From: a virus
Lineage: Duplodnaviria; Caudoviricetes
Virus record (IMG/VR): IMGVR_UViG_3300025848_000042
Location: 1-61,121 of that record
DNA length: 61,121 nucleotides
Direction: 5' to 3' (one strand)
The position numbers and the translations under genes are program-made. Numbering within the stretch: the stretch's first letter is position 1; each line of letters starts with the position of its first letter. Below, one piece after another: positions 7,093 to 46,163 of this stretch. A model generated the notes under the pieces. That model saw nothing but the letters and a program-made list of their open reading frames with translations, ran no database searches and was not told the origin of the DNA.

Positions 7093-7160
7093 AAAACCGT
7101 CACACCAGGGCACCTATGAGTGCCCTTTATGGTCTATAATACTCTCATACACAACAAATC
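7083..7160 (+). promoter_or_regulatory. Early module copy
   Basis: GGACACTTGAAAAACCGTCACA, hairpin AGGGCAC/GTGCCCT, TATAAT 7135-7140. Near-identical to the copy at 23824. Confidence 0.85.
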
Positions 7161-7437
7161 CAAATGAACACTCTGGATATTATCAAGTTTTTTGTTCCAT
7201 ATGCCGATAAAAACGACAAGGGAGAAGTCATCAGTTTGAATATTCCTTGGGGGTTTTTTATTCTTGTAATTATTGCTTCTCTAATCTAATGAACTTCACT
7301 AAACGACAACTCATTCTTCTTCAAACAGCACTCACAGTTTTTTATGATGAAATTGCAAAGACGGCACCATCTAAAATGAAAACAGAAGTAATGGAAATCG
7401 CACAAATGGTTCAGGATTCTTATGAGGAGGCACCGGT

Positions 7438-7662
7438 ATGACTGACGAAAAAATGAAAGTATTCGTAGTGATTGAGGACTTTGATTCTGGTCCTGGATAT
7501 GCAAGTTATAACATTTGTGATATCTTTTTGACAGAAAAACAAGCAATTGAGGAGATGAACCGACTTATAAAAGAGTATGAAGATATTTGTGGAATGAAAA
7601 TGGAAGATATGCAGAGTTGGGAACAGTGTTCTTATCGTGTACTTGACTGGGAGGTAAAATGA
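7438..7662 (+). CDS. Hypothetical protein, paralog of 14401-14607
   Basis: Shared MKV.VV.ED.DSGPG.AS.NIC.IF...YEDICG. Confidence 0.75.
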   Translation: MTDEKMKVFVVIEDFDSGPGYASYNICDIFLTEKQAIEEMNRLIKEYEDICGMKMEDMQSWEQCSYRVLDWEVK

Positions 7663-7997
7663 CTGACGAACAACTGCTTGAAGAATACAATAAGGAGATA
7701 TTCGATTTTGACGGTTCGGGTCCATGGACAATGCTACAAATCCTTGCCCAGTCTCGTCAGTTTAGGGAGCATTCTAAAAACTATCGAGAAATTTATGCAA
7801 AGGCGCATCAACTGGGTTATGAAAGAGGGGTGGAAAAGGCAAAAAGAGATTATGTCAAACTTGACGACCTTCGCAAAATGACCATTCAAGAACTTGCAAA
7901 CCTTATTGGAGAGGACACCTGACCAACTGGCACACTGAGGCACCTCCGGGTGCCTTTTTTGATGTATAATAGTCCTATACAGAAAGGAGGAAGACCA

Positions 7998-8276
7998 ATT
8001 TCAGGAGGACACTTCAACGACAACGGGTACGTTTACTACAAAGTCGCACAATTTGCTGATGAACTTGAACACGAAATCAGCAACAATCATGTAAAAAATG
8101 AGTGGGGATACACACCCAATCATACCCGAGAAGTCATCGAGTATCTTAAAGAACAGATTCCTAAGATGCGTAAGATGGCAGAGATTATGCGTGCTTGCGA
8201 TTATTTGTATTCTGGTGACTACGGAGATGATTCTTTTATGGAAAGAGTTAACCAAATTAATGAGGATTATGACTGA
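7998..8276 (+). CDS. Hypothetical protein, probable ATT start (MSGGHF...)
   Basis: AGGAGG at 7985-7990 lies 7 nt before in-frame ATT. Upstream ATG/GTG codons fall inside the promoter. Confidence 0.55.
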   Translation: MSGGHFNDNGYVYYKVAQFADELEHEISNNHVKNEWGYTPNHTREVIEYLKEQIPKMRKMAEIMRACDYLYSGDYGDDSFMERVNQINEDYD

Positions 8277-8538
8277 CCTTCTCCAAAAATATAAAACCTG
8301 GACTTATAAACAAAACAGTAAATACTATAGTGAATATGATGAATGGTTTCAACCTCATTTCAGGTGGAACATTTTTGATGATAGGAATGATTGGCAACCA
8401 GAATGGTTGAGAGAGTATATGTATGGGTGGAGTGGAGTTAGTTATGCCTGGGAGTGTTGGAGTTATTGGATGAGAGATAAAAAGTATTCTTATGAACTAC
8501 CAAATGCTTTTTGGTTGGAACTGAATGGGAGTAGATGA
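8269..8538 (+). CDS. Trp/Tyr-rich small protein, paralog of 12031-12300
   Basis: Near-identical LLQKYKTWTYKQNSKYY...FWLELNG. Confidence 0.8.
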   Translation: MTDLLQKYKTWTYKQNSKYYSEYDEWFQPHFRWNIFDDRNDWQPEWLREYMYGWSGVSYAWECWSYWMRDKKYSYELPNAFWLELNGSR

Positions 8539-8879
8539 TGGACTTTCCTGTATTTCTAAACAAATGGGTGATTGGATTCAAACTAATTCGTTATACTCCG
8601 TTTTGGTTTTGGTTTCGTCTCATCAACCATTCTAATTGGAGAATGGACGACCACCAAAGATATTGGGACTTCTGGATGAGTATTAACAGAGGTTACGATG
8701 ATATGCAGTATCAATGGGAGTTTGAAAAAGTTTGGGGCAAAAACGCACAACCCGAAACAATTATTCTATCGCAAGAAAACTATGATGCTCTTGTTGAAAG
8801 ACTAAATGAACCACCCGATCCAAAAGTAGTTGAAAGATTGACTGAAATTTTACGAAAATCTGCTCCCTGGGACACCTGA
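8535..8879 (+). CDS. Trp-rich small protein, paralog of 12817-13155
   Basis: Shared MDFPVFLNKWVIGFK...YWDFWMSINRGY. Confidence 0.8.
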   Translation: MMDFPVFLNKWVIGFKLIRYTPFWFWFRLINHSNWRMDDHQRYWDFWMSINRGYDDMQYQWEFEKVWGKNAQPETIILSQENYDALVERLNEPPDPKVVERLTEILRKSAPWDT

Positions 8880-8950
8880 CCAACTGGCGCATCCCCCCAC
8901 CACAAGGGGGGATTTTTGCTGTATAATGATCTTATACACAAAAACTTTAA

Positions 8951-9169
8951 ATGACTGAACTTCGTTTATGTAAGGATTGTAAGCACTACAAGAAATCTTG
9001 GGTCGAACATCTTATTTTTGGTAGTGATGCAGACGATAAATGCCTTCATCCAGTATTGAGTGAAAATCTGGTGACTGGAAAAGTCAAAGGTGGTCGTTAT
9101 TGTACTTTTATGAGAATGTATGGTGGTGGATGTAGTGAAGAAGGTAAGTATTGGGAGGCACGAAAATGA
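8951..9169 (+). CDS. Cys-rich small protein, paralog of 13550-13771
   Basis: Shared C.DC..YKKSWVEHLIFGSDADDKC...GCSEEGKYWEARK. Confidence 0.8.
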   Translation: MTELRLCKDCKHYKKSWVEHLIFGSDADDKCLHPVLSENLVTGKVKGGRYCTFMRMYGGGCSEEGKYWEARK

Positions 9170-9330
9170 GTTCTTATATTTCGTGCTATAATCAGGAAAC
9201 ACGAGAACTGGAACACTACAAGGTTCCTTACGATGTTTCTGTGTATATCCAACAACTGGAATGTGAAATCAAGTATGGTTCTGGTGGTGTGAAAAGACTT
9301 TATCCTTTTAGATTTGGAGAGGAAGAATGA
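9166..9330 (+). CDS. 54-aa hypothetical protein, paralog of the ORF ending at 14423
   Basis: Shared YISCYN...ELEH.KVP..V..Y..QLE.EIKYG.GGVKR.Y.FRFGEE. Confidence 0.7.
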   Translation: MSSYISCYNQETRELEHYKVPYDVSVYIQQLECEIKYGSGGVKRLYPFRFGEEE

Positions 9331-9489
9331 TTGAAATGAGAATTGTTGAAATTGGTGATGGTTGCCGTCCAGAGTTTCAGTATCGGTATAAACTACCAGA
9401 AAATGAACAGTGGTTGGATTTTAAAGGTGATTGGGTTGAATGGAGTTATTGGGAAACTGCTCCTTATGTAAATTTGATGGAGATTGAAA

Positions 9490-9666
9490 ATGACTGAACC
9501 AACAGACACAGAAATCCTTGAGTTTCTACTCAATCAGTTCAAACCACATTCTCTCAAAATGAATGGTGAGAGTGATTGGGTGTTTATTAATAGTGGATTT
9601 CCTATGAATAGAGCAAAAGGTAAAAGTGCCCGTGATGCTGTGATTAATGCTATGGAGGCAAAATGA
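9490..9666 (+). CDS. Hypothetical protein, paralog of 17243-17422 and partly of 10044-10289
   Basis: Shared EPTDTEILEFLLNQFKPHSLKMNGESDW. Confidence 0.75.
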   Translation: MTEPTDTEILEFLLNQFKPHSLKMNGESDWVFINSGFPMNRAKGKSARDAVINAMEAK

Positions 9667-10820
9667 CTGATATAAAAACCAAAGCAGATAAAGTATTATC
9701 TGCTTATTATGATGACGAAGCACACGACCCTGCCTTCCACCTTACTGGTATTCTTCGTGAGGTGATTAATGTTCTTCAAGTGTCTCCTGGTGTGATTATG
9801 TGTGCTGATATGTTAGAATTATGTGAGGAACTTGAAAAATATGACTAACAAAAACAACTACAAACAAGGTGTTGGTATTTTTGAACTTCTTACAATTATC
9901 TTTGTTGTTCTCAAACTGACTGAAACAATTGATTGGACTTGGTGGCAGGTATTTTCTCCTTCTATTATTGCTCTCTCTGCTGGTTTTATTGAAGGTGTTA
10001 TTGAAGTTATTGTTGAGTATAGTCAAAAGAAAAAGGAGGAAAAATGAATAACGATTGGAAACCAACTGAACAGAACATAGGACAACCAGTATTGAAAGAA
10101 AACACTAAAAATTCTAACGAACCATCAGACACAGAAATTCTTGAGTTTCTGTTGAACCAATTTCAAATGCACTCTCCTAAAATGAACGGACAACATTCTT
10201 GGAGATTTATGAATGATTATTGTATGAAATTTGCAGTACCAAAGTTTCAAAATACTTTGAGAGTGCGACGAAAGCAAAGAAATATGTAAATCACATTCAT
10301 AATTCTGGTCTGGTGCAAGAATATGATTATGTTAGAATGGAAAAAACTTGGTGTTACCGAGAGCATCATCCGAAGCACAAATGGTTTTATATTTCGGAAA
10401 AACCTGATACCTTTATTTGTGTGGAAAAATACTAATGACTAAACTATCTATAGAAAAAATCAAAATAGAAAAAGTAAATGTTTCTGGTGAAGGCAAAGCA
10501 AAATTAAGTGGAGAATGGAAAGTAGAAACAGTAACAACAGATATTATAATTAATCCAAAGGTTTATAAGTATCTTGAAAGAAAACTGTGCAAAAAAATCA
10601 AACGCAGGATTCTTTATGAAATTTCTTGGTGGTCTTGCGAGAGTAGGAACACAAAATGTTTCTATAGTGCCCAAAAAATGAGGAAGTTTGTCAATGAACT
10701 TCATTCGTGGTATAATGATTATATTGAGATTGAGAAAACTTGGTGTTATAGGGAGTATTCACCAAGGCACAAGTGGTATTACATTTCCTTTGAACCAAAT
10801 CAGTTTGTTTGTGTAGAAAA

Positions 10821-10994
10821 ATGGTAAAATACAATCGTAAAATGAATTTTTGGGAGAAACTCTACGCATCTTGGTGGTGGATAGGACAAATCTTTGAAGA
10901 ATGGTGCTGGACTATGACTCACGATGATGGAGAGTTCTTCAACTATCTTCAAAGTGATTACTGCAAATACGAAGAAGATATGTATTATGACTAA
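10821..10994 (+). CDS. Trp-rich small protein, paralog of 18176-18352
   Basis: Shared KYNR.MN..EKL.A.W.W.G.IF.EWCWTMTHD. Confidence 0.75.
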   Translation: MVKYNRKMNFWEKLYASWWWIGQIFEEWCWTMTHDDGEFFNYLQSDYCKYEEDMYYD

Positions 10995-11760
10995 CCTCCT
11001 CCAACAATATACCCTTGAAGATTTCGTCAAGTGTCGTAATCAAAAAGAATGGGTTTGTGATAGATGTATGAAATGTGGTGATAGGGATTGTTGTTCTGGT
11101 AATCACATAATGTTTAGAGTTCCTAAAACTGATGACTGTCTTTGTTCTATTTGCTTGGGGGAACTAAAATGAAACCTTTCTATAAACTCAAACAGTTTTG
11201 GATACGAAGATATATGTGGAGGTGGTGTTTTGATTGGTGGTTTAGAGTAATGTATCCTCACATTTATTATAGTGAATATGATGAAAGGTATGAGGAATAT
11301 ATGAGTGTTGATGATATGTGGTGGTTTTGGGAGTATCTAAACAATCTTGGAGGAGTAAATGATGACTGATACCTGGAAAAAATGGAATATCTATACATCC
11401 ATCCATCTCTTTGAGTATTGTGTTTTCTCTTGGAGAAATCTGATGTGGATGCACCTTGACGGATTCAAAGATGAAGATAGAATGAGAGAACTATTCTGGT
11501 ATTATTTGAACTACGGGAATATCAATACTTATTATGAGTAAGGAAGAATACTACAAGTGGATAGAAGAAAACGATACATACCCAGAACATTCACATCAGT
11601 GGATTGTGAAAACTTATATTGATAATCAAATGTTCTATCGCAACTTCGGTCCATTTGAAACCAAAAAAGAAGCAAAAGAATGGATTGTAAACTATAAGAA
11701 AAAATATACAACCAAAGGATTTATTACAAGGTATAGTATTCAAGCATTATGTGAGGTATT

Positions 11761-11961
11761 ATGAATAAACTCAAAATACTCTGGAATAACAGAAGCACTT
11801 GGAGAAATGCTTTTGATGTTTGGTATATTCTAATGTTCCCTCATTTGTACTATACTAAATGGGTATGTGAGAATAATTTAATTGATGTGGAAGAGGATGC
11901 TTGGTGGTTTTATGAAGCACTGAATAATTATGGTAATATACATGATGATGAGGACACTTGA
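11761..11961 (+). CDS. Trp-rich small protein, paralog of 18345-18545 and related to 12297-12473
   Basis: MNKLKILWNNRSTWRNAFD...WWFYEALNN. Confidence 0.8.
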   Translation: MNKLKILWNNRSTWRNAFDVWYILMFPHLYYTKWVCENNLIDVEEDAWWFYEALNNYGNIHDDEDT

Positions 11962-12030
11962 AGAACCGTCACACCACTTCCCACAAGGGAGTGGTTTTGC
12001 CTTATAATACTCTCATAAGCAATCAAACCG

Positions 12031-12300
12031 ATGACTACTCTCCTCCAAAAATATAAAACCTGGACTTATAAACAAAACAGTAAATATTATGGTGAGTATG
12101 TTGAATACTTCCAACCTTACTTCAGGTGGAACCCTTTTGATGATAGGAATGACTGGCAACCAGAATGGTTGAGAGAGTTTATGTATGGATGGAGTGGAGT
12201 TGGTTATGCTTGGGAGTGTTGGAGTTATTGGATGAGAGATAAAAAGTATTCTTATCAACTACCAAATGCTTTTTGGTTGGAACTGAATGGAAACCGATGA
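12031..12300 (+). CDS. Trp/Tyr-rich small protein, paralog of 8269-8538
   Basis: Direct sequence comparison. Confidence 0.8.
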   Translation: MTTLLQKYKTWTYKQNSKYYGEYVEYFQPYFRWNPFDDRNDWQPEWLREFMYGWSGVGYAWECWSYWMRDKKYSYQLPNAFWLELNGNR

Positions 12301-12655
12301 ATAAACTTAAAATCTTTTGGAAATCAAGAAAGACTTGGAACTATGCTTTTATTGAATGGCAGTACACAATGTTCCCACATCTATTTCCTAAATGTTGGGA
12401 TGAGGTTGATGGTTCTTATTGGTTCTGGGAGGCACTAAACAACTATGATGGAGTATTTGAGGAATGGTTATGACAAAAAAACAAATTGAAATGTTAAGAG
12501 GACTGATACAGGCAGAGATTGACTATGCCATTCAAGATTATGTTAATAAAAATCCTTGGTCTTATGAAATAAAGAAAGATAATGATGAGTTTTGGGAACA
12601 ATTCGCAGAGACTTTTAACTCAACTTCCACTGAATCTTTGGAGATTGAGGTGTGA

Positions 12656-12736
12656 TGGAGTTATTTGATGAGAGATAAAAAGTATTCTTATCAACTACCT
12701 AATGCTTTTTGGTTGGAACTGAATGGGAGTAGATAA
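12656..12736 (+). pseudogene. 3' fragment (third copy) of the 8269/12031 gene
   Basis: Encodes only MRDKKYSYQLPNAFWLELNGSR and is a mosaic of the two full copies. Confidence 0.7.
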
Positions 12737-12815
12737 AGGACACTTTCCAAACTGGAACATATCACTTGAAAACAGGTGCCCTCTGTGGTATGATAATCTC
12801 ATAAACAATCAAACT
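12735..12815 (+). promoter_or_regulatory. Early module copy at a site that is empty in the paralogous locus (8527-8545)
   Basis: GGGAGTAGAT[81 nt]GATGGACTTTCC here versus GGGAGTAGATGATGGACTTTCC at 8527. Confidence 0.85.
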
Positions 12816-12816
12816 G

Positions 12817-13155
12817 ATGGACTTTCCTGTATTTCTAAACAAATGGGTGATTGGATTTAAACCGATTAAATATACTCCATTCTGGTTTTGGTTTCGTCTT
12901 GTAAATCATTCTAATTGGAGAATGGATGACCACCAAAGATATTGGGACTTCTGGATGAGTATTAACAGAGGTTATGATAATATGACTTACAAACATAATT
13001 TTGAAAATTTTTGGGGCAAAAATACAAAACCCGAAACAATTGTTCTATCTCAAAAAAATTACGATGCTCTGGTAGATAGGTTGAATGAACCACCAGAGTA
13101 TAATGAAAGGATTGCTAAACTATTACAACGAAAAACACCTTGGAGTGAAGAATGA
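12817..13155 (+). CDS. Trp-rich small protein, paralog of 8535-8879
   Basis: Direct sequence comparison. Confidence 0.8.
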   Translation: MDFPVFLNKWVIGFKPIKYTPFWFWFRLVNHSNWRMDDHQRYWDFWMSINRGYDNMTYKHNFENFWGKNTKPETIVLSQKNYDALVDRLNEPPEYNERIAKLLQRKTPWSEE

Positions 13156-13549
13156 AAAAACCAGAACCTCCCAAACCACGGATAATCCGTGAAGATTTTC
13201 TACCAGAACAAGATCCACTAATGAATTATCGCATTAAAAAAGTTACAAAACCTGATGGTAAGGTTTGGTATTATCCACAGAAGAAGTTTTTGTGGTTTTG
13301 GTGGAGTATTGGTGTTGGTGTTACTCTAGAGTATGATGATGAAAGATGGGCACAAGAAAGAGTTTTTGAGGATTACAACAAAACACTCAAAGATGAGGTA
13401 GAGTATCTTGCTCCTGATATTTCTAAAACCATAACCGCAGAACATAATCCTCCACCCAAAAATCCATAAGGACACTTTACGAACTGGAACAGGAAACTTG
13501 AAATCAGGTGCCTTTTCTGGTATGATACTCTCATAGATAAAAACTTTAA

Positions 13550-13771
13550 ATGACTGAACCTATTCGTCTCTGTTGCGACTGCCGTTTTTATAAGAAATCT
13601 TGGGTGGAACATCTTATTTTTGGTAGTGACGCAGACGATAAATGCTTTCATCCAGTATTGAGTGGAAATTTGGTGACTGGAAAAGTCAAAGGTGGTCGTT
13701 GTTGTAGTTTTATGAGAATGTATGGTGGTGGATGTAGTGAAGAAGGTAAGTATTGGGAGGCACGGAAATGA
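13550..13771 (+). CDS. Cys-rich small protein, paralog of 8951-9169
   Basis: Direct sequence comparison. Confidence 0.8.
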   Translation: MTEPIRLCCDCRFYKKSWVEHLIFGSDADDKCFHPVLSGNLVTGKVKGGRCCSFMRMYGGGCSEEGKYWEARK

Positions 13772-14400
13772 GTGACAAAATTATTCCCAAAACCGCACTG
13801 ATTGAAATTGATGGTGCGATTGATGATTTTTATGATGAATGGGAAGATAATGGAGATAACATTGGAGTTTTACCAACTCAAGATGATTATGATAACTGGT
13901 TGTTCTCCACTGCTATGGGGTTTTTTGATAGACACCGATTTGAATTGGACAACTATCTGAAACTTAAGGAGAACCAGAAATGAATAAACCTTATTTGCTG
14001 ATTGCTGGGGAACATTTTTACCCTTCTCCTGATACTGGTGATTACTTGGAGGATTGAGAATGTATAAAATAACTTATAAAAGGATAAACGGAACTCCTAC
14101 ATCACAAACACGAAATACACTCCAAGAAGCAGTTGCTTATGCTCTTATTCTTGAAGCAAGAGAAGACTTAAATGTGAAAGTTATGTCTATTGAGAAGATT
14201 AAAAATGATTGAAGAACACAAATCAATTGAAGAAAAATCCAGTTCCTTCTACATTTCGTGTTATAATTATCAAGGAGAATTAGAGCACTTCAAAGTTCCT
14301 GAACCAGTTTATACTTATGTTCTTCAACTGGAAAATGAAATCAAGTATGGACTTGGTGGTGTGAAACGACGTTATGCTTTTAGATTTGGAGAGGAAGTAA

Positions 14401-14607
14401 ATGAAAGTTTATCTTGTAGTTGAAGATTATGATAGTGGTCCAGGAATTGCGAGTTTAAATATTTGTAATATCTTTTCAACAGAAGAACGAGCAATTGAGA
14501 AAAGAGATGAAATTATCAAACATTATGAAGATATTTGTGGTATAGATTATGTTGATGAATATTTGCGTGAAAATGTTCGGGTAGAAGAATGGGAAGTAGA
14601 AGAATGA
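14401..14607 (+). CDS. Hypothetical protein, paralog of 7438-7662
   Basis: Sequence comparison; flanked by the direct repeat ATGAAAGTTTAT (14401 and 14604). Confidence 0.75.
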   Translation: MKVYLVVEDYDSGPGIASLNICNIFSTEERAIEKRDEIIKHYEDICGIDYVDEYLRENVRVEEWEVEE

Positions 14608-15025
14608 AAGTTTATGATTACCGAATTGTAGAAGACCTCAATTTAAAAACTTTGAAACCTTATTTTTTTATTCAAAGATATAATATTAAGGACCAAAAGT
14701 ATTTCCTTTATTCAGATGCTACATTCCAAACACTTCAAGAAGCACAAGAAGCAATACGACTACTGAGAAAATACAACGAACCTTTATATCATTATGTGGA
14801 GTGATTGAAAATGATTGAACTAACACAAGAACAAATCAAAACTCTTGAAGATGCAATTAATTCTCTTCCAGAAAAATTGAGAACTGGAAAATACAGAACG
14901 ATGGAAGGAATTGAAGAACAACTTGCGAGTGGTGCTAAAATCATCTTTTATTTTATATGTGAAGATAAAGTTGATAAGAATGGTGAATATAAAGAATATG
15001 AAATAAAGAGTATGAGGTTGGAAGA

Positions 15026-15613
15026 ATGACTGAAAGATTAAATCATAATCTTAATGTAGATACAATCAAAACAATCAAAGATGTGAAGAATATCTTTGAT
15101 ACTATGGAATTGGTTGCTTCTATGGATAAAGATAATCCAAAATATGAAGTCGCAAAGGAATACTTTACCATTCCTTATGTTGCACCTGAACTTAAATTCT
15201 CAACACCACGCAAGAGTATTGAAGAAATCCAACAAGAACTTGAAGATAAGATTGATGCTCTTATAAAGACAACAAAAGAAAAGTTTGAGTATTCCAAAGT
15301 AGTTGCCGAAAAAAGATACAAATACAAGTTTGATAAGATTTTTGAGAACTTTCTGTATGCTCGTGATAAAGGACAGTTTCCACCCAAACTCACTATTACT
15401 ATTGGAGATGGATTGTATGGGAATAATTATGTGACTTCTAACTTTGTGGAAAGTTCTCTTGTAATCAAACAGGGGAAAAAACACGACGGTTATTATACAA
15501 ATGGAAATCGTAGATATTTGAGGTATTATATGCCTGATAAACCAAATGCGATTGTGAGGTTCTTTATGAGAACTTGTCTGGGTTTTTATTGGGTTGATGA
15601 GAAGGACACTTGA
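15026..15613 (+). CDS. Hypothetical protein, paralog of 17419-17997
   Basis: Shared MTERLNHNLNVD...YYMPDKPNAIVRFFM.TCLGFYWVDEKD. Confidence 0.85.
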   Translation: MTERLNHNLNVDTIKTIKDVKNIFDTMELVASMDKDNPKYEVAKEYFTIPYVAPELKFSTPRKSIEEIQQELEDKIDALIKTTKEKFEYSKVVAEKRYKYKFDKIFENFLYARDKGQFPPKLTITIGDGLYGNNYVTSNFVESSLVIKQGKKHDGYYTNGNRRYLRYYMPDKPNAIVRFFMRTCLGFYWVDEKDT

Positions 15614-15680
15614 AGAACTGGCACAGGGAGACCCCACAAGGTCTCCTATTGGTCTATAATACTCTCATACACACAGAAAC
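15604..15680 (+). promoter_or_regulatory. Early module copy that supplies the stop codon of the upstream ORF
   Basis: GGACACTTGAAGAACTGGCACA, hairpin GGAGACC/GGTCTCC, TATAAT 15655-15660. Confidence 0.85.
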
Positions 15681-15683
15681 TTG

Positions 15684-15866
15684 ATGACCCCCCTATCTGC
15701 TCTACTTTGTTTTTTTGCTCCTCTTGTTGGTTCTTATGTTGGAGTAAAACTCTTTGAGTATTTTGATAAACCTTATGTTCTTCCTCAACCAAAACGAGAA
15801 TCTATTGACCCAGAAGACCCTTCTTGCTGGAACTTTTCACAAGCACGATTGATGAGGATGAAATGA
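15684..15866 (+). CDS. Small membrane-anchored protein, paralog of 22828-23010
   Basis: Hydrophobic N-terminus; shared EDPSCWNFS.ARL. Confidence 0.75.
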   Translation: MTPLSALLCFFAPLVGSYVGVKLFEYFDKPYVLPQPKRESIDPEDPSCWNFSQARLMRMK

Positions 15867-16010
15867 CTAAAGAATATAAACTATTGATTAGTATTAATTT
15901 TCCTCTTATTTCTCTTGATGATAAAATAATTGCTAATGCTCTTATAGGAGATGTTTATGAGGCATTAGAAAAATATAAACTTGATGTTTCTGGTGTTGAA
16001 TGGATTGATT

Positions 16011-16097
16011 ATGACTAAACTAAACCTCTTTAACGCATATTCCACACTAATTTTGTGTTGGGGAATTGTAATTGTTTTGAACCTTATTCCTAACTGA
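16011..16097 (+). CDS. 28-aa hydrophobic peptide, paralog of 23007-23093
   Basis: MTKLNLFNAYSTLILCWGIVIVLNLIPN; the frame is conserved in both copies. Confidence 0.6.
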   Translation: MTKLNLFNAYSTLILCWGIVIVLNLIPN

Positions 16098-17242
16098 AAT
16101 GATTGACCTCTCTCAACTGACCGAAGAACAAATCAACGAACTTGAACTTCAAATCCAAAAACATAAGGAAGAACAAAAACACAAAGATAATCTAAAAAAT
16201 CTAAAAGGTTATAAAGTGACCTTTTATGTGAGGTTTGACCCTGAAAAGCATAAGGATGATGATATGCTTGCAGATAACGGAGAACTTGACCCCAACATTT
16301 TTGCTGATTATCTGTGCGATAATCTTGTTACAGACCTGATTAGGGGTTTTGATTTGCGTGGTTATGAGGATGTGAGTTATCCTAATGTGGAAGTAGCAAC
16401 CCAACAAGATATTGAAGGGAAGTTTTGAGGACACTTGAAGAACTGGCACAGGGACACTCCAAAGCCCCCTGTGATGCCTTATAATACTCTCATAAGCAAC
16501 CAAACCGATGACTAACTCAATCACTCCCAAAGTAGCATACATTCCTCTGGAATATCATATGTCCGTTGAAGATTTCTTGGAAGTTTGGAAGGATATGGGA
16601 ATGGAAGATGAACCAACCCAAGAAGATTATGATACTGCTGTTCTTGATAGGGCACAATCGTATTTTCACGATATGAGAGGAATGTTTGAAAAGTATATTC
16701 GTTTGGAGAATGCTTGATTATGACTGAAGAACAAATCCTACAACTTGCTGAAAATCACCTAACTCTTGAAAAGTGGGAGGACATTTGTTGGAGGGCAGAT
16801 ACTTTACAACTCTTGAAGTTTGCCCGAGAACTTTATGATGAGGGTTATACAAAAGGTTTCAAAGTAGGACACGATGCTGGTTGGGAACTAAATGACGAAG
16901 TATCACGCAGAGGATTATGACTAAACTCACAGCACTTGACTTAATGGTAATCGCAGATACTTTAAGTAGAACTCTCAATATCGCAGGATTTGGGGGAACT
17001 CTTGGTGGATATACAAAAGAAGCAAGAGAAAATGTTGCTAATAAAGTTCAAACAATTTTGAGTAATATGGAAGTAGAACTATCTGTGGAGAAAACTGATG
17101 CCTAAAATGACTTATGAAGAATGGAGTGAAAAAAATCCAATTGATTGGGATGAGATTGAAAAAAATGATAATCCAGATATGTTGATTACTAAAACAGGTG
17201 TAGAAATGATGCATTATCAATGTTATTTGTGGGAATGTAAGA

Positions 17243-17422
17243 ATGACTAACGAACCAACAGACACAGAAATCCTTGAGTTTCTACTCAATCAGTTCAAAC
17301 CACATTCTCTTAAAATGAATGGTGAGAGTGATTGGGTGTTTATAAATACTGGATTTCCTATGAATAAAGCAAAAGGTAAAAGTGCCCGTGATGCTGTGAT
17401 TAGTGCTATGGAAGCAAAATGA
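17243..17422 (+). CDS. Hypothetical protein, paralog of 9490-9666
   Basis: Direct sequence comparison. Confidence 0.75.
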   Translation: MTNEPTDTEILEFLLNQFKPHSLKMNGESDWVFINTGFPMNKAKGKSARDAVISAMEAK

Positions 17423-17997
17423 CTGAAAGATTAAATCATAATCTTAATGTAGATGCAATCAAAACAATTAAAGATGTGAAGAATGTCTTTTATACTATGG
17501 ATTTGGTTGCTTCTATGGATGAAGATAATCCAAAATATGAAGTCGCAAAGAAATACTTTACCATTCCTTATGTTGCACCTGAACTAACATTCCCAGCACC
17601 ACGCAGGAGTATTGAAGAAATCCAACAAGAGTTTGATGAGAAGATTGATGCTCTCATAAAGACAACAAAAGAAAAGTTTGAGTGTTCTAACTATTTTGCT
17701 GGAAAAAGATATAACGAAAAGTTCAATAGGATTATTCAGGACTTTGAGTATGCGAAGGAACACGGAAGTTTTCCTAAAATTCAAACACTTACTCTTGATT
17801 ACTCTCAGTTTGTTGCGACTGGTAGTTCTGTGGAAAGTTCTTTTGTAATCAAACAGGGGAAAAAACACGAAGGTTATTATACGAATGGAAACCGTAGATA
17901 TTTGAAGTATTATATGCCTGATAAACCGAATGCGATTGTGAGGTTCTTTATGAAAACTTGTTTGGGTTTTTATTGGGTAGATGAGAAGGACGGATGA
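17419..17997 (+). CDS. Hypothetical protein, paralog of 15026-15613
   Basis: Direct sequence comparison. Confidence 0.85.
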   Translation: MTERLNHNLNVDAIKTIKDVKNVFYTMDLVASMDEDNPKYEVAKKYFTIPYVAPELTFPAPRRSIEEIQQEFDEKIDALIKTTKEKFECSNYFAGKRYNEKFNRIIQDFEYAKEHGSFPKIQTLTLDYSQFVATGSSVESSFVIKQGKKHEGYYTNGNRRYLKYYMPDKPNAIVRFFMKTCLGFYWVDEKDG

Positions 17998-18175
17998 GAT
18001 ACTACGAAACCAGAACTTACGAGCACCAGTGTGATTTTGATGCTAAAAACAGAGCAGAAAAAGCATCACAAGATTACTACAAAAAGTGGATAAATCTTCG
18101 TAAAGAAGTAAGAGAACTGGTAAAAACTCAAAACATTTCTATTACACCTGAATTTGCTAAACTGATTGGACTGAA

Positions 18176-18352
18176 ATGAAATACAATCGTCCTATGAATG
18201 TCTTTGAGAAACTCCAAGCAGGTTGGTATTGGTGTGGTGAAATTTTTGATGAATGGTGCTGGACTATGACTCACGACCATACTGATGGAGAGTTCTTTCA
18301 GTTTCTTCAAACTGACTATGTTGCTTATGAGGAGGATACTTATTATGAATAA
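18176..18352 (+). CDS. Trp-rich small protein, paralog of 10821-10994
   Basis: Direct sequence comparison. Confidence 0.75.
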   Translation: MKYNRPMNVFEKLQAGWYWCGEIFDEWCWTMTHDHTDGEFFQFLQTDYVAYEEDTYYE

Positions 18353-18545
18353 ACTCAAAATACTCTGGAATAACAGAAGCACTTGGAGAAATGCTTTTGA
18401 CTATTGGTATATTCTAATGTTCCCTGAAAGATATTATACAAAATGGGTGTGTCAGCATAGATTGATTGATGTAGAAGAAGATGCTTGGTGGTTTTATCAA
18501 GCACTCAATAATTTTGATAACTTATTTGATGATGAGGACACTTGA
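18345..18545 (+). CDS. Trp-rich small protein, paralog of 11761-11961
   Basis: Direct sequence comparison. Confidence 0.8.
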   Translation: MNKLKILWNNRSTWRNAFDYWYILMFPERYYTKWVCQHRLIDVEEDAWWFYQALNNFDNLFDDEDT

Positions 18546-20882
18546 AGAACTGGCACAGAGACACTCCAAATGCCCCTGAGAATGCCTTATAATACTCTCA
18601 TACACAACCAATCCTATGAACCGCAAATCTTCTTCTCTTGACCTTTTCGGTCTTATTCCTATCTTTATGATTTTTGTGGTTGCTCTTATGTTTGTGGGAA
18701 TTCCTCTTACTGGTGTCGGCAGAGTAATCGCAACTCAACAAGCACTCAACCAAGAATGTAAGACCAACTACAACTTCCTTCAAGTTGCTTTTGCTGGTGA
18801 TAATCTTGCTCGTCTTTGCCAAATCAAAAATCAAACGGTGACTATCAAATGACTAACCTTTCCCCCCAAGCACAAGCAATCGTAGATGCTTTTGATGCTG
18901 AATACTATCAGAAAGCAAGAAACCGACAAGATGCTCTTGCTGCTGTTCTTCGTGTTCTTGCTGATAATGTTGCCCCTGATGATTATAAGTGTTTTTATGG
19001 GGACAGAGAATACGACGCAGGAATGGAAGGTCGTAATGATGAAATTCGTGAGGCAATTTTGAGTATTGCTACTGAATTGGAGGCAAACTGATGAAACTCT
19101 ACCGATACAAAAAAGACGGATGCCTCTACAATCTTTATGAGATGTTGATGCCCTATTATGAACTCAAAGCAGTTCCCTATTTTCCAAATCAAGGTATTCT
19201 TGCTAAAAGTAAAAGGAGTATTTCTATGAATGACTTTGAGGTAGTTGCTGAACGATGACTGACGAACAAAAACTCAAACTGCTTCTCAAAGTTCTCAAAG
19301 ACTACGCAGAGATGAAGCACTGCTATAATAAGTATGGGGATGATTTCGATCCAAATGATTATACTAGTGGTGATGTTGCCTTTGATACTGGTGCTGAATG
19401 GGGTGAGATTACCTTTGCCCGCACACTTTTAGAACAAATTGGTGTAGAATTTGAGCATCCTTGTATGAGTGAAGACAAATGACTGAAATTGAAGAACTGA
19501 AAGCACAAATCAAAGTATTGGAAAAGAAACTCTCATTCCTTGAAGAACTGGAAAAAACAAAATCACCAGTAGAAGAAGGATATAAGAAAGTTTATGGTTA
19601 TTATCCTGCTCCTTATGGAGAAGATTGTTATTGGGAATATTTCCAAAATGGATATAAACAAGCACAAAAGGATTATAAGGTAGGAGAGTATCAAGAAACC
19701 GCACAAGAACGAGGAGAACGACTTCATAATGAAATGGAAGAAACTATCAGAATTCACGATGGTTATGGTGTAGTTGATTACAAACCAACTCCAAAAACAC
19801 CAGTAGAAGAAGTATATATGAAAGTTTTTGGACATCCACCTGAATGTGCTCAACGTGGTGTTTGGGATGGTTTCCAAGCAGGTTATAATGCTGCTTATGA
19901 AGAAAAAGTAGTAGAAGAACCAGAAGAGAATGAATGGAAATCTGTTGCTCTTCGTTTTGGTGAAAAGTTGAGTGGATATTTGAGTGATGGTTATTATGAA
20001 CTTTCTCCTGCTGCTTGGTTTAGGTGGGCAGTATTTACTTATGGGAAAGGACAACAAATAAAGAATGCTGTCCGTGAAAGTGTAAAATGGTGTGAAGAGC
20101 ATCCCGAGGAGAGTGTGGAAGATTATTTAACTCCAAGAATGAGGACACTTTGAAAACAGGCACAAGGGCACTTTACAGGTGCCCTTTTTTGATGTATGAT
20201 ACTATTATAGATGAAATCCAAGATGACTGAAACTATTCAACAACTCAAAGAGGATATTGCTATTCTTCAAGAGAAACTACGAAAACTTGAAGAACAAGAC
20301 CCTGAAATGCTACTATTGCGTCAAGGTAAAGTAGATATTGTTGATTACAATCATAGAACTCATTATAGAATTGAATACACCGATAGTTTTTCTGGTGTTT
20401 ATAAGTGGTTTGTGCGAAAATTGGGAGAAATTCCTTTTCTTGAAGAAGTTAGGGATGTAAATGTTTATGCTCCTCTTGAAGAACTTTACCAGAAAGAAGT
20501 AGTGAAACAGAAAGACGATTATCCTTATAAAAAATACACACCAGAAGAAACAGAACAATCCCTGAAAAAAGCATTTAGAGAAGCAGTCAAGCAAGGTGTG
20601 GTTTCGTCTGTTGAGAAACCTACTGATGAAGAAGATAATGATAAGAACTTCAAGAACTCTCTTGACCTTATCAAAGAATGGGGTGAAAAAAATAAACCAA
20701 AAACACTTTATCAAATTTGTATGGAGTGGTGGAATGAAGTGTTTGTAAATCAAATGGACGATAATATTTGTGTTGATGTCCTGGTAAGTAAAATTGATAA
20801 AGAGTTTATTCCACCTTCTTACGATACTAATGATTATCAGTGGAATAAATGTTTGAAAATTATGAGGGATAAGTTGAGGTAG

Positions 20883-20890
20883 TATAAATA
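20883..20890 (+). promoter_or_regulatory. T4-type late promoter
   Basis: Exact TATAAATA. Confidence 0.75.
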
Positions 20891-20894
20891 CAAA

Positions 20895-20953
20895 TGTCTA
20901 TGTGAACCGCAATTCTCTACAGACAAGATTAGGTGCTCTTTGGGGCACCTTTT
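20895..20953 (+). ncRNA. Putative ~58 nt RNA antisense to the leader of the downstream endonuclease gene
   Basis: Lies between a late promoter and terminator AGGTGCTC-TTTG-GGGCACCT-TTT (20931-20953). 20897-20913 is complementary to 20978-20994. Confidence 0.55.
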
Positions 20954-20967
20954 CTGTTATAAACTAT

Positions 20968-20975
20968 TATAAATA
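20968..20975 (+). promoter_or_regulatory. T4-type late promoter for the endonuclease gene
   Basis: Exact TATAAATA 25 nt before the ATG. Confidence 0.8.
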
Positions 20976-21000
20976 GTATTGCGGTTTACATAGAATAACG

Positions 21001-21840
21001 ATGACTTCACAAAGTCCAAGAATTTACACATATAAAATTACCTTTGAAGAAGTTCCATATTACTATTATGGAGTTCATAAGGAAAAGAAATATAATGAGT
21101 ATTATATGGGTTCTCCTGTAACAAACAAATGGTGTTGGGAATTTTATACTCCAAAGAAACAAATACTTCAACTTTTTGACTTTACAGATAAAGGTTGGTT
21201 AGAGGCAAATTTAGTTGAAGATAGATTAATAAATCCATTCTATCAAACTGATAAATGGTGTTTGAACGCAAGTTGTGGTGCTAAAATATCTTTAGAATGT
21301 TTAAGAAATGGTATAAAAACCCAGCAAAAATTAGGTTTAGGATTATTTGGATTAACAAAAGAAGAAAGAAGTAAAATATCTAAAATAAATTATCAAAATG
21401 GTGTTGGTCTTGGGGGACTTACTTTAGAACAAAGAAGTGAAGCAGGTAAAATTGGTGGTGTTATAGGAGGAAGAAAAAATGTTGAAACAGGTCACATACA
21501 AAGTCTTGGTTTAATATCTGGAAAAAGGAATTTAGAAACTGGGTTTATACAAGAACTTGGTAAAAAATGGGGGATAATACATAAAGAAAATAAAACTGGA
21601 ATTTTTTCTCAAACACCAGAGGAATTAAGTGAGGCAGGTAAAAAAGGTTCTTCTAAAAATAAAAAGAATGGAGTTGCTATATTTGCTCTTACAAAAGAAC
21701 AATTAAGTAATCAAGGTAAAAAAACTAACGCACAAAAATGGATGTGTCTTGAAACTGGTTTTATTACTAATCCAGGAAACTTAACAAAATATCAAAAAGC
21801 AAGAGGTATAGACACCTCAAAGAGAAAAAGAATATCATAA
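21001..21840 (+). CDS. Free-standing Seg-like (GIY-YIG-related) homing endonuclease
   Basis: N-terminal IYTYKIT...YYYYGVH...YMGS, then repeated G(L/I)FxLTxEExSxxGK and KNxETGxIQxLG modules. AT-rich relative to neighbours. Confidence 0.7.
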   Translation: MTSQSPRIYTYKITFEEVPYYYYGVHKEKKYNEYYMGSPVTNKWCWEFYTPKKQILQLFDFTDKGWLEANLVEDRLINPFYQTDKWCLNASCGAKISLECLRNGIKTQQKLGLGLFGLTKEERSKISKINYQNGVGLGGLTLEQRSEAGKIGGVIGGRKNVETGHIQSLGLISGKRNLETGFIQELGKKWGIIHKENKTGIFSQTPEELSEAGKKGSSKNKKNGVAIFALTKEQLSNQGKKTNAQKWMCLETGFITNPGNLTKYQKARGIDTSKRKRIS

Positions 21841-21921
21841 GGACACTTCAAAAACTGGAACAAGGGCACTTGAACCTGGTGCCCTGATGCCCTATAATAC
21901 TCTCATACACAAAGAACTCTA

Positions 21922-22557
21922 ATGAACATCAACGGATACGAAATCAAACCCTTTGCTGACCTTGAGGGTGCTTACCTTAAGGGTGCTAACCTTTGGTGTG
22001 CTAACCTTCAGGGTGCTAACCTTAAGGGTGCTAACCTTAAGGGTGCTAACCTTCAGGGTGCTAACCTTCAGGGTGCTAACCTTAAGGGTGCTATCCTTAA
22101 GGGTGCTGACCTTATGAGTGCCAACCTTAAGGGTGCTAACCTTGTGGATGCTAACCTTTATGGTGCTTACCTTCGGGATGCTAACCTTGTGGATGCTAAC
22201 CTTGTGCGTGCTAACCTTTGGTGTGCTATTCTTGTAGGTGCTAACCTTGTGCGTGCTGACCTTCAGGGTGCTGACCTTCGGGATGCTAACCTTTGGGGTG
22301 CTGCACTTGTGTATGCTGACCTTAAGGGTGCTGCACTTGTGTATGCTGACCTTAAGGGTGCTAACCTTTGGTGTGCTAACCTTAGGGAGGTTACTTTTGA
22401 GGGTGCTGACCTTGAGGGTGCTAATCTAAAGGGAACTATTCTTGAGAAGAAAAAAGAACCTCAGGATGATAAAGACCTGAAGATTAAAGAACTTGAAGAA
22501 GAACTGAAGAAATATAAGGATACTCTTAAGGCACTTAAGGCACTTCTGGACACTTGA
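21922..22557 (+). CDS. Pentapeptide repeat protein with C-terminal coiled coil
   Basis: About 33 A(N/D)Lxx repeats followed by [13 protein letters not shown]. Confidence 0.95.
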
Positions 22558-22827
22558 AGAACTGACACAGGGTCTCACCACAGAGACCCTTTTTGGTTTA
22601 TAATAACCTCATACACACAGAAACCTGATGAAACTTCTTGTAGTCAATCTTCAAAATCCCAACGAAACAAAATACCGCAATCCAAAGGATATTAGTGCTT
22701 TTATGTGGGGTCGTCGTCTTTCTAACTATCCTATGTTTGCTGTGAGTGAGAATGGTGAAATGAAACAGATTGTTCTTGATAGTGCTGATGTTATGGAAAT
22801 TGAAAAGCAAGTAATGGAGGCAATCAA

Positions 22828-23010
22828 ATGACCCCTCTATCTGCTCTACTTTGTTTTCTTGTGCCTTTTATTGGTTCTTATGTTGGAACCAAACTCTTTG
22901 GGTATTTTGATAAACCTGATGTTCCTTCTCAACCAAAACGGGAACCGATTGACCACGAAGATCCTTCTTGTTGGAACTTTTCAAAAGCACGATTGAGGAT
23001 GATGAAATGA
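22828..23010 (+). CDS. Small membrane-anchored protein, paralog of 15684-15866
   Basis: Direct sequence comparison. Confidence 0.75.
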   Translation: MTPLSALLCFLVPFIGSYVGTKLFGYFDKPDVPSQPKREPIDHEDPSCWNFSKARLRMMK

Positions 23011-23905
23011 CTAAACTAAATCTCTTCAACGCATATTCAACAATAGTTTTGTGCTGGGGAATTGCAATTTTTTTGAACCTTATTTCTAATTGAAATAAAA
23101 TGAAATCAATTCATCTTTTATTTAATTCTTTATTTTCTTGTTCTCATAAATGGGAAATTGTAAAGAGTTTTCCAGTAAAAGAAACAGTTTGGTATGAACT
23201 TGAACCACGATATTATATTGCTGATAAATTGAAATGTATAAAATGTGGTGAAACAAAAATAAAGAAATATGATGGTAAAGATAAAAAGGACACTTGACGA
23301 ACTGGCACAGGGACACTCCAAATGCCCCTGTGATGCCTTATAATACTCTCATACACAAAGGAACTTCAAATGACTAAATGCGTTCGTGACGGAAAAAAAG
23401 ATAATGATTATTGGAATGTTGCTTGATTAACCGATGAGAGAAGAAACACAATCCTTTATTATTGTTGGAGTAATTGTTCTGGTGTTTATTGTTCTGTTTG
23501 CTTTTAGTTACAACTATGAGAAAACTGAATGTCTTGCCGAAGGTGGAAAATGGATTTCTGGTATGATTGGTGGTAATTATTCTTATTTTTGTATTCCAAA
23601 ATGAAATTCCCTAATTACGCACTTGGATTATTCACAGGTTTCTGCCTTGCAGGTCTGTACTTTATAATTCCTGGTATTATTGAAAGTTTTCAGCATTCAC
23701 CAGAACCACAAAAAATGCAGAGTACCTTTCAGGTTGTTGATAATTATGAAGGATGCGATGTTGTCCGTTGGAACAATCCTATGCTTGCTGAGTACAAGTA
23801 TTTCGTAAAGTGCCCGAAATGAGGGACACCTGAAGAACCGTCACACCAGGGCACCTATGAGTGTCCTTTATGGTCTATAATACTCTCATACACAAAGGAA
23901 CTCTT

Positions 23906-24463
23906 ATGAAAGTCAACGGTTACAAAATCAAACCCTTTGCTAACCTTCAGGGTGCTAACCTTTCTCGTGCTTACCTTGAGGGTGCTAATCTTGAGGGTGC
24001 TAACCTTGTGAATGCTAACCTTGAGGGTGCTTACCTTCGGGGTGCTAACCTTCGGGGTGCTGACTTTTATGGTGCTAATCTTGAGGGTGCTAACCTTATG
24101 GGTGCTGAACTTGAGGGTGCTAACCTTAGGGGTGCTATCCTTGATGGTGCTGACCTTAGGTATGCTATCCTTGATGGTGCTGACCTTAGGTATGCTATCC
24201 TTGATGGTGCTGACCTTAGGTATGCTATCCTTTGGAATGCTAACCTTCAGGGTGCTAACCTTCAGGGTGCTAACCTTTATTGTGCTAACCTTCGGGATGC
24301 TAACCTTGAGGGTGCTAACGTAACTGGAACCATTCTTGAGAAGAAAGAAGAACCTCAAGATGATACTTCACTTTCTCAAAAGGTCAAAGAACTTGAAGAA
24401 GAACTGAAGAAATATAAGAACAAATTCAATCAACTCAAAGAACTCTTAAATGAAACTCACTGA
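23906..24463 (+). CDS. Pentapeptide repeat protein with C-terminal coiled coil
   Basis: A(N/D)Lxx repeats with the same end caps as 21922-22557 (NGY.IKPFA, GTILEKK.EPQDD). Confidence 0.95.
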   Translation: MKVNGYKIKPFANLQGANLSRAYLEGANLEGANLVNANLEGAYLRGANLRGADFYGANLEGANLMGAELEGANLRGAILDGADLRYAILDGADLRYAILDGADLRYAILWNANLQGANLQGANLYCANLRDANLEGANVTGTILEKKEEPQDDTSLSQKVKELEEELKKYKNKFNQLKELLNETH

Positions 24464-45897: not shown

Positions 45898-45898
45898 G

Positions 45899-46162: not shown

Positions 46163-46163
46163 G

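Follow-up and report, generated by a model that had tools for sequence, protein, structure and literature searches.

Homology breakpoints at start codons and at repeated cassettes in a micro-gene array of a putative T4-like cyanomyovirus

The micro-gene array and its tandem copies

We analyzed a viral DNA of 61,121 nt (IMG/VR record IMGVR_UViG_3300025848_000042, positions 1 to 61,121), called the window below, which is an entire assembly made of a single metagenome-type contig. The window contains a long array of micro-genes (Table 1), nearly all of which are linked to their neighbours via stop/start overlaps or via repeated promoter/terminator-like cassettes. We observed that homologous segments of this array, within the window and in related viruses, tend to end at start codons, and we argue that micro-genes may be exchanged as single modules through short sequences at these starts and through the cassettes. 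The gene list was curated by hand, as the automatic gene chain had mis-set several starts. To guard against circularity, the tests were repeated with GenBank annotations and with genes called entirely by script in 43 sequences.

Comparison of positions 8000-23500 with phage genomes by megablast gave only patchy matches of 86-88% identity. Synechococcus phage S-SRM01 matched 17% of this query and S-PM2 matched 4%. Both phages are T4-like cyanomyoviruses, and the matches fall in their arrays of hypothetical proteins (early regions). A domain scan found a helicase at the left end of the window and gp6 baseplate domains at the right end, with RNA ligase, a GNAT domain and an HNH gene between them. 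This layout agrees with that of S-PM2, whose ORFs (open reading frames) 002-078 come before gp25/gp6 and are termed the 'ORFanage' in the sections of Puxty et al. 2015 (PMC4503421) that we drew on. From these matches and domains we identify the window as the hyperplastic early region of a T4-like cyanomyovirus.

Overlaps of 1, 4 or 8 nt, which leave no intergenic DNA, were present at 45 of the 74 array junctions (4-nt ATGA overlap, 28; 8 nt, 15; 1 nt, 2). The GenBank annotations gave 22, 11 and 4 overlaps of 4, 8 and 1 nt among 71 junctions in S-SRM01 and 18, 5 and 1 among 55 in S-PM2. Stop/start overlaps (ATGA, TGATG) of co-directional genes are thus present throughout the array, as in coupled gene pairs, and would be expected to give translational coupling.

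The starts themselves are strikingly alike. The words ATGACTGA or ATGACTAA open 24 of the 75 curated genes, ATGANTRA (N, any base; R, A or G) opens 37, and the second codon is ACT in 26. ATGACTRA combines a start codon with TGA in frame +1 and with TGA or TAA in frame +2, and both of these stops are used by upstream genes: 11 such starts lie in 4-nt overlaps and 9 in 8-nt overlaps. The form AUGACUGA carries the ACU codon together with the stop at +6..8. We counted 36 ATGACTRA sites in the window (34 on the + strand, 2 reverse) against 9.6 +/- 3.3 in shuffled sequences, so that the common ATGACT(G/A)A start described in an earlier note, made from the letters of this DNA alone, was borne out. 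Of the + strand sites, 27/34 fall in 7.4-25.7 kb. The complete genome of S-SRM01 has 41 forward and 0 reverse sites, 26/41 in 50.8-75.9 kb, and that of S-PM2 has 35 forward and 3 reverse, 24/35 within the first 23 kb; the reversed control word gave 9-10 sites per strand in these two genomes. Regions rich in ATGACTRA are also gene-dense, so that the enrichment per gene start should be smaller than the enrichment per kilobase.

Within ATGACT-started genes, codons 3-4 were hypervariable among orthologs and paralogs of genes 19255, 10987, 8269 and 9490, while the remainder of the gene was conserved. The variants GACGAACAA, GACACCGAA, AACGAAGAA and ACCGAAGAA were seen ahead of a conserved AAACTC. 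This looks like a junction scar, or like a fit to the stop of the upstream partner.

Self-blastn and blastp assigned 29 of the 75 curated genes to 13 paralog families (denoted F1, F2 and so on, with gene starts in brackets in Table 1). The earlier note had counted at least 11 small genes twice, which agrees with this result, and had described their order as scrambled, which does not hold. The series F2-F3-F4-F5-F6-F7-F8 with a terminal cassette is repeated in the same order in two adjacent, colinear copies, A and B (Table 1); in every interval, whole genes are inserted or deleted in one copy relative to the other. Further paralog pairs are 7438/14401, 13768/16508, 15026/17419, 15684+16011/22828+23007 and 21922/23906.

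All 12 of the 12 paralog pairs tested had a ratio of nonsynonymous to synonymous divergence (dN/dS) of 0.17-0.88, which means purifying selection on both members; therefore the micro-genes are real. Synonymous divergence (dS) of these pairs ranged from 0.09 (F6) to 0.93 (F7) and was uneven along the copies. A simple tandem segmental duplication shares with this locus the two adjacent colinear copies, and the even divergence that one event would leave was not found. Therefore copies A and B do not come from one untouched duplication; either genes were later exchanged one by one, or two already diverged arrays were joined. One of the genes kept twice encodes a hydrophobic peptide of 28 aa (16011-16097 and 23007-23093; 82% amino acid identity, dN/dS 0.25), probably a small membrane peptide.

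Homology ends at start codons

Self-comparison of the window gave 51 high-scoring segment pairs (HSPs). After removal of 23 that were internal to the pentapeptide-repeat genes and 12 that covered cassettes only, 16 were kept, with 64 ends. We found 38 of the 64 ends within 10 nt of a curated start, where random placement predicts 7.8%. When the HSPs were shifted, 5.0 +/- 2.1 ends fell at starts, with a maximum of 14 in 5000 trials. The concentration of breakpoints at starts proposed in the earlier note thus far exceeds the random expectation.

The same was observed with starts taken from GenBank annotation (HSPs of at least 100 nt, ends within 10 nt). Between the window and S-SRM01, 16/46 HSP ends lay at annotated starts (random 6.9%, P = 4e-8), and between the window and S-PM2 7/20 did so (P = 3e-4). 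Single cases show how sharp these borders are. Window 16508-16717 and S-SRM01 are identical at 39/40 nt up to and including ATGACT and unrelated beyond it; at S-SRM01 17007 this gives a three-way junction, in which the part matching window 16508-16717 is followed by sequence matching window 18849 onward. Window positions 18176 and 14401 match S-SRM01 through ATGA only, and 13768 only through ATGAGT.

We extended the comparison to a population set of 43 non-redundant sequences (458 kb; 17 redundant ones removed), compared all against all with starts called by a script. This set gave 1171 unique junction pairs, of which 642 lay within 12 nt of a start in both sequences, 151 in one sequence, 169 in cassettes and 209 elsewhere. 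Counted by ends, 1451/2342 were within 10 nt of a start, compared with 7% for random positions. Left homology ends peaked at offsets 0 (300 ends) and -1 (110) from the A of ATG, and right ends at +4 (197), +6 (83), +8 (60) and +9 (51). Therefore a homology block begins at its own ATG and extends into the start of the following gene, as far as the end of ATGA, ATGACT or ATGACTRA, and adjoining blocks overlap by this ATGA..ATGACTRA stretch.

Two genes used as probes illustrate how often neighbours change. Gene 16099 (16099..16428, +, 109 aa) identified 34 related IMG/VR loci, in which it was followed by at least 13 different genes or by a cassette, always via TTTTGA-GGAACTGAAATGA; its homologs were preceded by a cassette tail or by various genes. 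This gene bears its own 13-nt linker, GGAACTGAAATGA. The F4 gene (8951..9169, +) identified 23 related loci with at least 8 different downstream neighbours.

The junctions within the window that the earlier note had quoted are all present as written. Genes 9663 and 17419 have ...AAAATGACTGA in common and then diverge; 9166 and 13768 share AAATGAGT and are divergent beyond it; TATTATGA is common to 10987 and 18345. The note had also placed ORF 15863-16018 between two copies of ATGACTAAA, and this is what we see. The 9-nt direct repeat borders a 148-nt whole-gene indel, and the paralogous segment 22828-23096 has a single ATGACTAAA, at 23007, and lacks the ORF. Likewise, gene 14401 is flanked by the 12-nt repeat ATGAAAGTTTAT on both sides, as had been noted. 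In a related locus (L050) F5 is directly followed by a 14604-like gene, i.e. without the 14401 gene, and the join sits inside the GGAG of the Shine-Dalgarno (SD) sequence. Another locus (L039) has a three-way junction in which the 3' end of F4 is joined at ATGA to sequence matching window 9841 from its ATG. In locus L048 a 17098-like gene starts with ATGACTAA, compared with ATGCCTAA in the window, and its A provides the TGA stop of F4. The crossovers in these loci fall within the initiation region.

Microhomology and reuse of the same starts

Microhomology was tested in three genomes by taking homologous genes with non-homologous downstream neighbours and comparing the two downstream starts. 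A common prefix of at least 6 nt, counted from the A of ATG, was found in 12/31 cases (null 0.19, P = 0.008) and one of at least 5 nt in 14/31 (null 0.27, P = 0.02). Right ends at +4 to +12 numbered 511 in the population set, and 28% of them extended to +8 or further, compared with 9% expected. Junction microhomology is thus 2-3 times that given by chance. The junction profile 5' of ATG has a weak purine-rich SD zone only. A long conserved linker was considered as a general junction feature and rejected, as there was no excess of upstream identity (the GGAACTGAAATGA linker of gene 16099 apart).

Where the two members of a homologous pair both open with ATGANTRA, they occupy different junction classes in 24/31 cases, and the same start motif serves 4-nt, 8-nt or no-overlap junctions to different upstream genes. 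Therefore junctions of the coupling type survive swaps. The 9663 family, for example, has overlaps of 4, 8 and 4 nt in three genomes, genes 11761 and 18345 have overlaps of 4 and 8 nt, and genes 16011 and 23007 of 8 and 4 nt. The earlier note had taken the start word for a microhomology connector that exchanges genes while keeping them coupled. The change of junction class and the common prefixes are in favour of this proposal; a causal role of the motif did not follow from them.

The stop at +6..8 (TRA) is present even where it terminates no gene. At 4-nt overlaps, where this stop is unused, TRA was found in 31/68 genes (P = 3e-12 against the background of 11.6% in the same codon phase inside genes). 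It was found in 13/53 genes lying more than 12 nt from the upstream gene and in 1/23 genes in other overlaps. Families bearing the motif have significantly more upstream partners (effective number 6.7 vs 3.4) but are also larger (14.9 vs 8.4 members), which confounds the comparison.

Promoter/terminator cassettes

The earlier note overlooked 17 cassettes which resemble the promoter early stem-loop (PeSL) elements of other T4-like phages. We aligned the 17 copies (Table 1), which form a unit of 70-85 nt; 14 of them lie in 6.3-23.9 kb. Folding of 6 copies gave GC stems of 7-10 bp in 6/6, with differing (covarying) stem sequences, and terminator-like matches were found in the cassettes at 7937, 8891, 11973 and 22569. 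The -10 box, TATAAT or TATGAT, is almost invariant. A -35-like hexamer (TTGAAA/TTGAAC) at 17 nt spacing was present in the hairpin loop of 3 cassettes only (12766, 13498, 21870), and the conserved TTGAAG of the cassette stands about 39 nt 5' of the -10 box. These features suggest that the cassettes may act as promoters and terminators. The GGACACTTGAAGAACTGGCACA block, at about 39 nt from the -10 box with the hairpin between, is too distant for a normal -35 element. Its TGA is the stop of many upstream genes (...ACTTGA ends at 7092, 11961, 15613, 18545, 22557 and 23297).

Cassettes hold 169/1171 of the population breakpoints (~14%). A module of cassette and gene 16508 has 95-99% identity with S-SRM01 and is bordered by the cassette on the left and by ATGACT on the right, and arrays A and B meet at cassette 11952. 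The linker that follows gene 16099 (GGAACTGAAATG; 16428/16429) resembles the cassette head (GGACACTTGAAG), and just past the 16099-like gene of locus L028 we found GGACACTGAAATG, a hybrid of linker and cassette head. These sequences hint that linkers and cassette heads might interconvert.

PeSL elements were shown to mediate shuffling and formation of mini-circles in RB49/phi1, T4/PST and KVP40/nt-1, according to the portions of the two PeSL papers used here (Arbiol et al. 2010, PMC2839356; Comeau et al. 2014, PMC4122927); neither paper makes mention of cyanophages. As far as these descriptions go, our cassettes are alike in having a repeated GC stem-loop with a sigma-70-like -10 box that ends just 5' of the ATG of a small early ORF, and in being a unit of about 70 nt, dense in a hyperplastic region between small ORFs and adjoining indels or replacements. 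They differ in sequence, with the 5' block GGACACTTGAAGAACTGGCACA about 39 nt upstream of TATAAT. A further difference is that here most breakpoints lie at gene-gene overlaps, with a start in both sequences (642/1171), vs the 169/1171 in cassettes. Few PeSLs were found in S-PM2, as stated in a part of Puxty et al. 2015 (PMC4503421).

Sequencing runs and the reality of the tandem pair

The region is present almost word for word in sequencing runs of several studies. Contigs or unitigs (Logan) of four runs were placed on 7000-24500, and all 30 bins were covered in each. The listed unitigs with 0-1 differing letters (runs X1, X2 and X5) come from runs labelled freshwater (two studies, 2017) and marine (2024). 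In the estuary metagenome run X7, contigs join distant positions of the window, and diverged relatives with alternative joints are abundant. Among the 15 listed X7 joints (30 ends), 19 ends were within 10 nt of curated starts and 6 at cassettes. These joints share 0-9 letters (16507 to 17243, 9; 11166 to 13978, 7; 16507 to 16720, 6; 9165 to 9841, 4); the shorter side is only 20-30 nt and is flagged as weak.

These runs bear on the possibility that copies A and B are an artefact of assembly, i.e. orthologous arrays of two co-occurring strains joined at the cassette near 11952-12035. The window is a single contig of metagenome type, colinear copies with gene-specific divergence (dS 0.09-0.93) would suit two mosaic strains, and none of the listed unitigs (up to about 1.5 kb, ending where paralogs share words) bridges the A/B junction. 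Against this, unique unitigs of copy A, copy B and the flanks are equal in depth within three runs of three studies (X2, 9.2-11.2; X1, 8.7-16.1; X5, 5.5-10.5). An independent 58-kb contig (L040) has a 10435-like gene, F7, an F8-like gene, F2, a cassette and F3 in the same order as across the A/B junction, and paralogs within one array are also present in other contigs of the group (L037, L043, L046 and L052, besides L040). Furthermore, the start-codon pattern in the genome and population tests is independent of the A/B duplication. We therefore regard an artefact as very improbable.

Proposed mechanism and alternative explanations

We propose that micro-gene modules are exchanged via microhomology at start junctions and via PeSL-type cassettes, and we give this reading a probability of about 60%. 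Each micro-gene would be an independently assorting module, which begins with the ATG of the gene and ends with the ATGA (often ATGACTGA or ATGACTAA) opening the next one, and it would carry the SD sequence of its neighbour within its own 3' end. Genes would be duplicated, deleted, inserted and swapped between co-infecting relatives by recombination in short common sequences. One substrate would be the 70-85-nt cassette, and the other the 4-9 nt of the initiation junctions (GGAG of the SD, ATGA, ATGACT or ATGACTRA). A recombinant at ATGACTRA would end the upstream gene in any frame, keep the stop/start overlap and pass selection, because the word contains a start and stops in both other frames. 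A further part of the events is explained by the PeSL mechanism known from the literature.

Several observations weigh against this proposal. Common prefixes of at least 8 nt were found in only 4/31 cases of the three-genome set (null 0.07, P = 0.17), and 5' of ATG there was no excess identity (at least 2 nt common in 10/39 vs 0.18, P = 0.14). The 1171 junction pairs are not independent events, and 209 of them lie away from starts and cassettes. Within the window, exchange was not confined to starts, as the earlier note would have had it with its exact exchange at start/stop overlaps; 38/64 ends fit that claim and the following do not. The 93-nt remnant of the 3' end of an F2 gene at 12649-12741 is a scar with no clean start-codon junction: it makes up, with 12213-12290, a direct repeat of 78 nt (95% identity) that encloses two inserted genes (12297-12655). 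Segments 10114-10189 and 10323-10430 are partial intragenic copies. The motif-bearing families did not differ clearly from other families in partner diversity per copy, either overall (0.65 vs 0.52, P = 0.06) or among tight junctions (0.67 vs 0.66). Finally, the genes first in an operon carry TRA at +6..8 above background (13/53), which also fits an N-terminal or initiation preference.

One alternative is that selection acted alone, i.e. that joins were random and illegitimate and the survivors were those that left both neighbours intact and coupled. ATGACTRA would then owe its frequency to better initiation or reinitiation at Met-Thr-(Asp/Glu/Lys/Asn) starts and A-rich codons, and not to recombination. 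The lack of microhomology 5' of ATG, the per-copy partner diversity, which is not clearly higher in motif families, the TRA excess at genes after a cassette, which need no upstream stop, and the scars and partial copies, which show that there are joins off start codons, are all in its favour. Selection-filtered gain and loss of whole genes would also put homology ends at gene borders; therefore the tests against random positions are silent on mechanism. What such filtering explains poorly is that 4- and 8-nt overlaps leave a target for random joins that is about zero bases wide, yet there are hundreds of clean junctions. In addition, junctions with different partners share longer prefixes than random pairs do, the indels are bordered by direct repeats of 9 and 12 nt, and the stop in the third frame, though unused, reaches about 4 times its background rate at 4-nt junctions and is present in only 1/23 other overlaps. 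We thus consider selection alone a possible but somewhat doubtful explanation. The anatomy of the array, the breakpoints placed to the nucleotide, the reuse of starts across overlap classes and the purifying selection are there under either explanation; that microhomology guides the joining, rather than selection filtering random joins, is what we infer.

A dedicated cassette system, in which the micro-genes are moved by a site-specific recombinase of the integron kind or by a homing endonuclease, would fit the cassette-like look of the array, the HNH_3 gene of the window and the HNH and NUMOD3 genes annotated in the array of S-SRM01. An integron-like array has an attC-type site after each cassette and an integrase. 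Here most junctions have no intergenic DNA, therefore there is no room for an attC-like site. Moreover, 9 of 10 micro-genes had no match in either the Pfam or the PHROG library and there was no Rfam match. No integrase was found among the 10 large ORFs scanned; no search across all ORFs was made. We give such a system almost no credence.

Exchange via microhomology and cassettes could be carried one step further. We suggest, tentatively, that ATGACTRA, or more broadly ATGANTRA, might be an evolved frame-independent docking word, which re-couples translation and is at the same time a preferred microhomology for recombination. If this were true, the cyanophage early region would be an integron without an integrase, in which each exchange regenerates the word, so that it spreads.

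Relation to known systems

Botstein is said to have put forward, in 1980, a modular theory of phage genomes with linker sequences, and the Hendrix group reportedly described mosaic phage genomes with novel joints at gene boundaries, produced by illegitimate recombination and selection. The array is similar in that whole genes are the units of exchange, with boundaries at gene ends, and the debate on guided versus filtered joints is the same. It differs in that the modules are genes of 28-200 aa without intergenic space, the common sequence is the stop/start overlap itself, and breakpoints can be placed within 0-9 nt at hundreds of junctions. Whether mosaic joints at gene boundaries are guided by short conserved sequences, or are random and selected, is an old open question, and in this cyanophage group it can be tested on junctions that are unusually clean and numerous and are resolved to a few bases. 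The double role of the 8-nt word, as a start and as two off-frame stops, yields a specific prediction, and the relatives S-PM2 and S-SRM01 are culturable.

Deletions and gene-17 amplifications in T4 occur at short homologies near initiation regions. The whole-gene indels of the window are likewise bordered by short repeats, one copy of which is left in the shorter form. Here the repeats are the recurrent start motif, so that genes end up joined in register. Deletion and duplication between short direct repeats are known from Albertini et al. 1982, as cited in a passage of PMC4122927.

Translational coupling via ATGA/TGATG overlaps, by termination-reinitiation, has been described (in those parts of Huber et al. 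2019, PMC6728339, and of PMC10666635 that we used), and the dominance of 4-nt ATGA overlaps (28/74) is in keeping with it. The usual order of overlap lengths is 4 nt and then 1 nt, according to an excerpt of PMC3887535, whereas in the window 8-nt overlaps (15/74) far exceed 1-nt overlaps (2/74). The 8-nt class exists because of a single recurrent word, ATGANTRA, which also holds the 4-nt stop.

Another known counterpart is the 'ORFanage' of S-PM2, with homologous genes at the same genome position upstream of gp25/gp6. In the sections of PMC4503421 at hand, relatives from freshwater are mentioned, synteny is described as poorly conserved, mispackaging and independent acquisitions are favoured, and PeSLs are judged unlikely; these sections contain no start-codon breakpoints, paralog arrays or ATGACTRA motif. 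We found no description in the literature, supplements being outside the scope of the search, of start-codon-resolved shuffling in cyanophages, of the ATGACTGA/ATGACTAA word, of shuffling at start-stop overlaps, or of duplication of cyanophage early genes. PeSL-type cassettes, described in coliphages and vibriophages, are dense in at least some cyanophage early regions. Exchange at start junctions would explain the fast turnover of 'ORFan' early genes without breaking of operon expression, and it would be a sharp example of gene-by-gene reshuffling of a phage genome.

Other features of the window

Table 1. Positions of the array, its copies, the cassettes and other features of the window
Feature	Position	Strand	Details
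Array of ~75 small genes, 23-279 aa (curated)	5791..25643	+	ORF lists, curation
Copy A	8269..12035	+	self-blastn, blastp
Copy A, order, first part		+	F2 (8269), F3 (8535), cassette, F4 (8951), F5 (9166), 9327, F6 (9490)
Copy A, order, second part		+	five genes, F7 (10821), 10987, F8 (11169), two genes, F8 (11761), cassette 11952
Copy B	12031..18619	+	self-blastn, blastp
Copy B, order, part 1		+	F2 (12031), F8 (12297), 12464, F2 remnant, cassette, F3 (12817), 13152, cassette
Copy B, order, part 2		+	F4 (13550), F9 (13768), 14060, F5 (14205), F1 (14401), 14604, 14811, F10 (15026), cassette
Copy B, order, part 3		+	F11, 15863, F12, 16099, cassette, F9 (16508), three genes
Copy B, order, part 4		+	F6 (17243), F10 (17419), 17994, F7 (18176), F8 (18345), cassette 18536
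Second copy of F11 + F12 (60-aa and 28-aa genes)	22828..23096	+	paralogous to 15684-15871 and 16011-16100
Whole-gene indel, 148 nt (ORF 15863-16018)	15863..16010	+	9-nt direct repeat ATGACTAAA at 15863 and 16011
Gene with direct repeat on both sides	14401..14603	+	12-nt ATGAAAGTTTAT at 14401 and 14604
Remnant of F2 gene 3' end, 93 nt	12649..12741	+	
Reference cassette	15604..15687	+	GGACACTTGAAGAACTGGCACA, variable GC hairpin, T-rich tract, TATAATACTCTCATACACAA, ~10 nt, ATG
Cassettes, other copies (starts)	6314, 7083, 7913, 8870, 11952, 12736, 13470, 16429		
Cassettes, other copies (starts)	18536, 21841, 22548, 23288, 23824, 31270, 32460, 38322		
DEAD/ResIII helicase	1219-2445		left end of window; domain scan
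HNH_3 gene	54258-55121		domain scan
gp6 baseplate domains	58156-60069		right end of window; domain scan
Pentapeptide-repeat paralog pair	21922-22557 and 23906-24463	+	cassette 5' of each

The whole window contained 0 tRNAs and 0 Rfam matches at the gathering score. Region 44000-54000 has a G+C content of 0.44-0.46, compared with about 0.36, few long ORFs, and internal repeats of its own (45584-46341; 47904-52253); it shares the absence of tRNAs and of Rfam matches.

The gene after cassette 7913 (7998-8276) begins with ATT, at a position that is ATG in 8 orthologs (S-SRM01 and 7 IMG/VR loci). In the orthologs this ATG opens a conserved MSGGHF N-terminus, and a perfect AAGGAGG stands 6 nt 5' of the ATT. 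This is either a rare ATT start or the loss of a start codon.

Among the micro-gene proteins tested (10 per library), the pentapeptide-repeat paralogs were the sole match to a Pfam or PHROG family. The protein encoded by 21922-22557 matches Pfam PF00805 (E = 1e-51), and the 15-nt periodic DNA of the two pentapeptide-repeat genes dominates the repeat output of the window.

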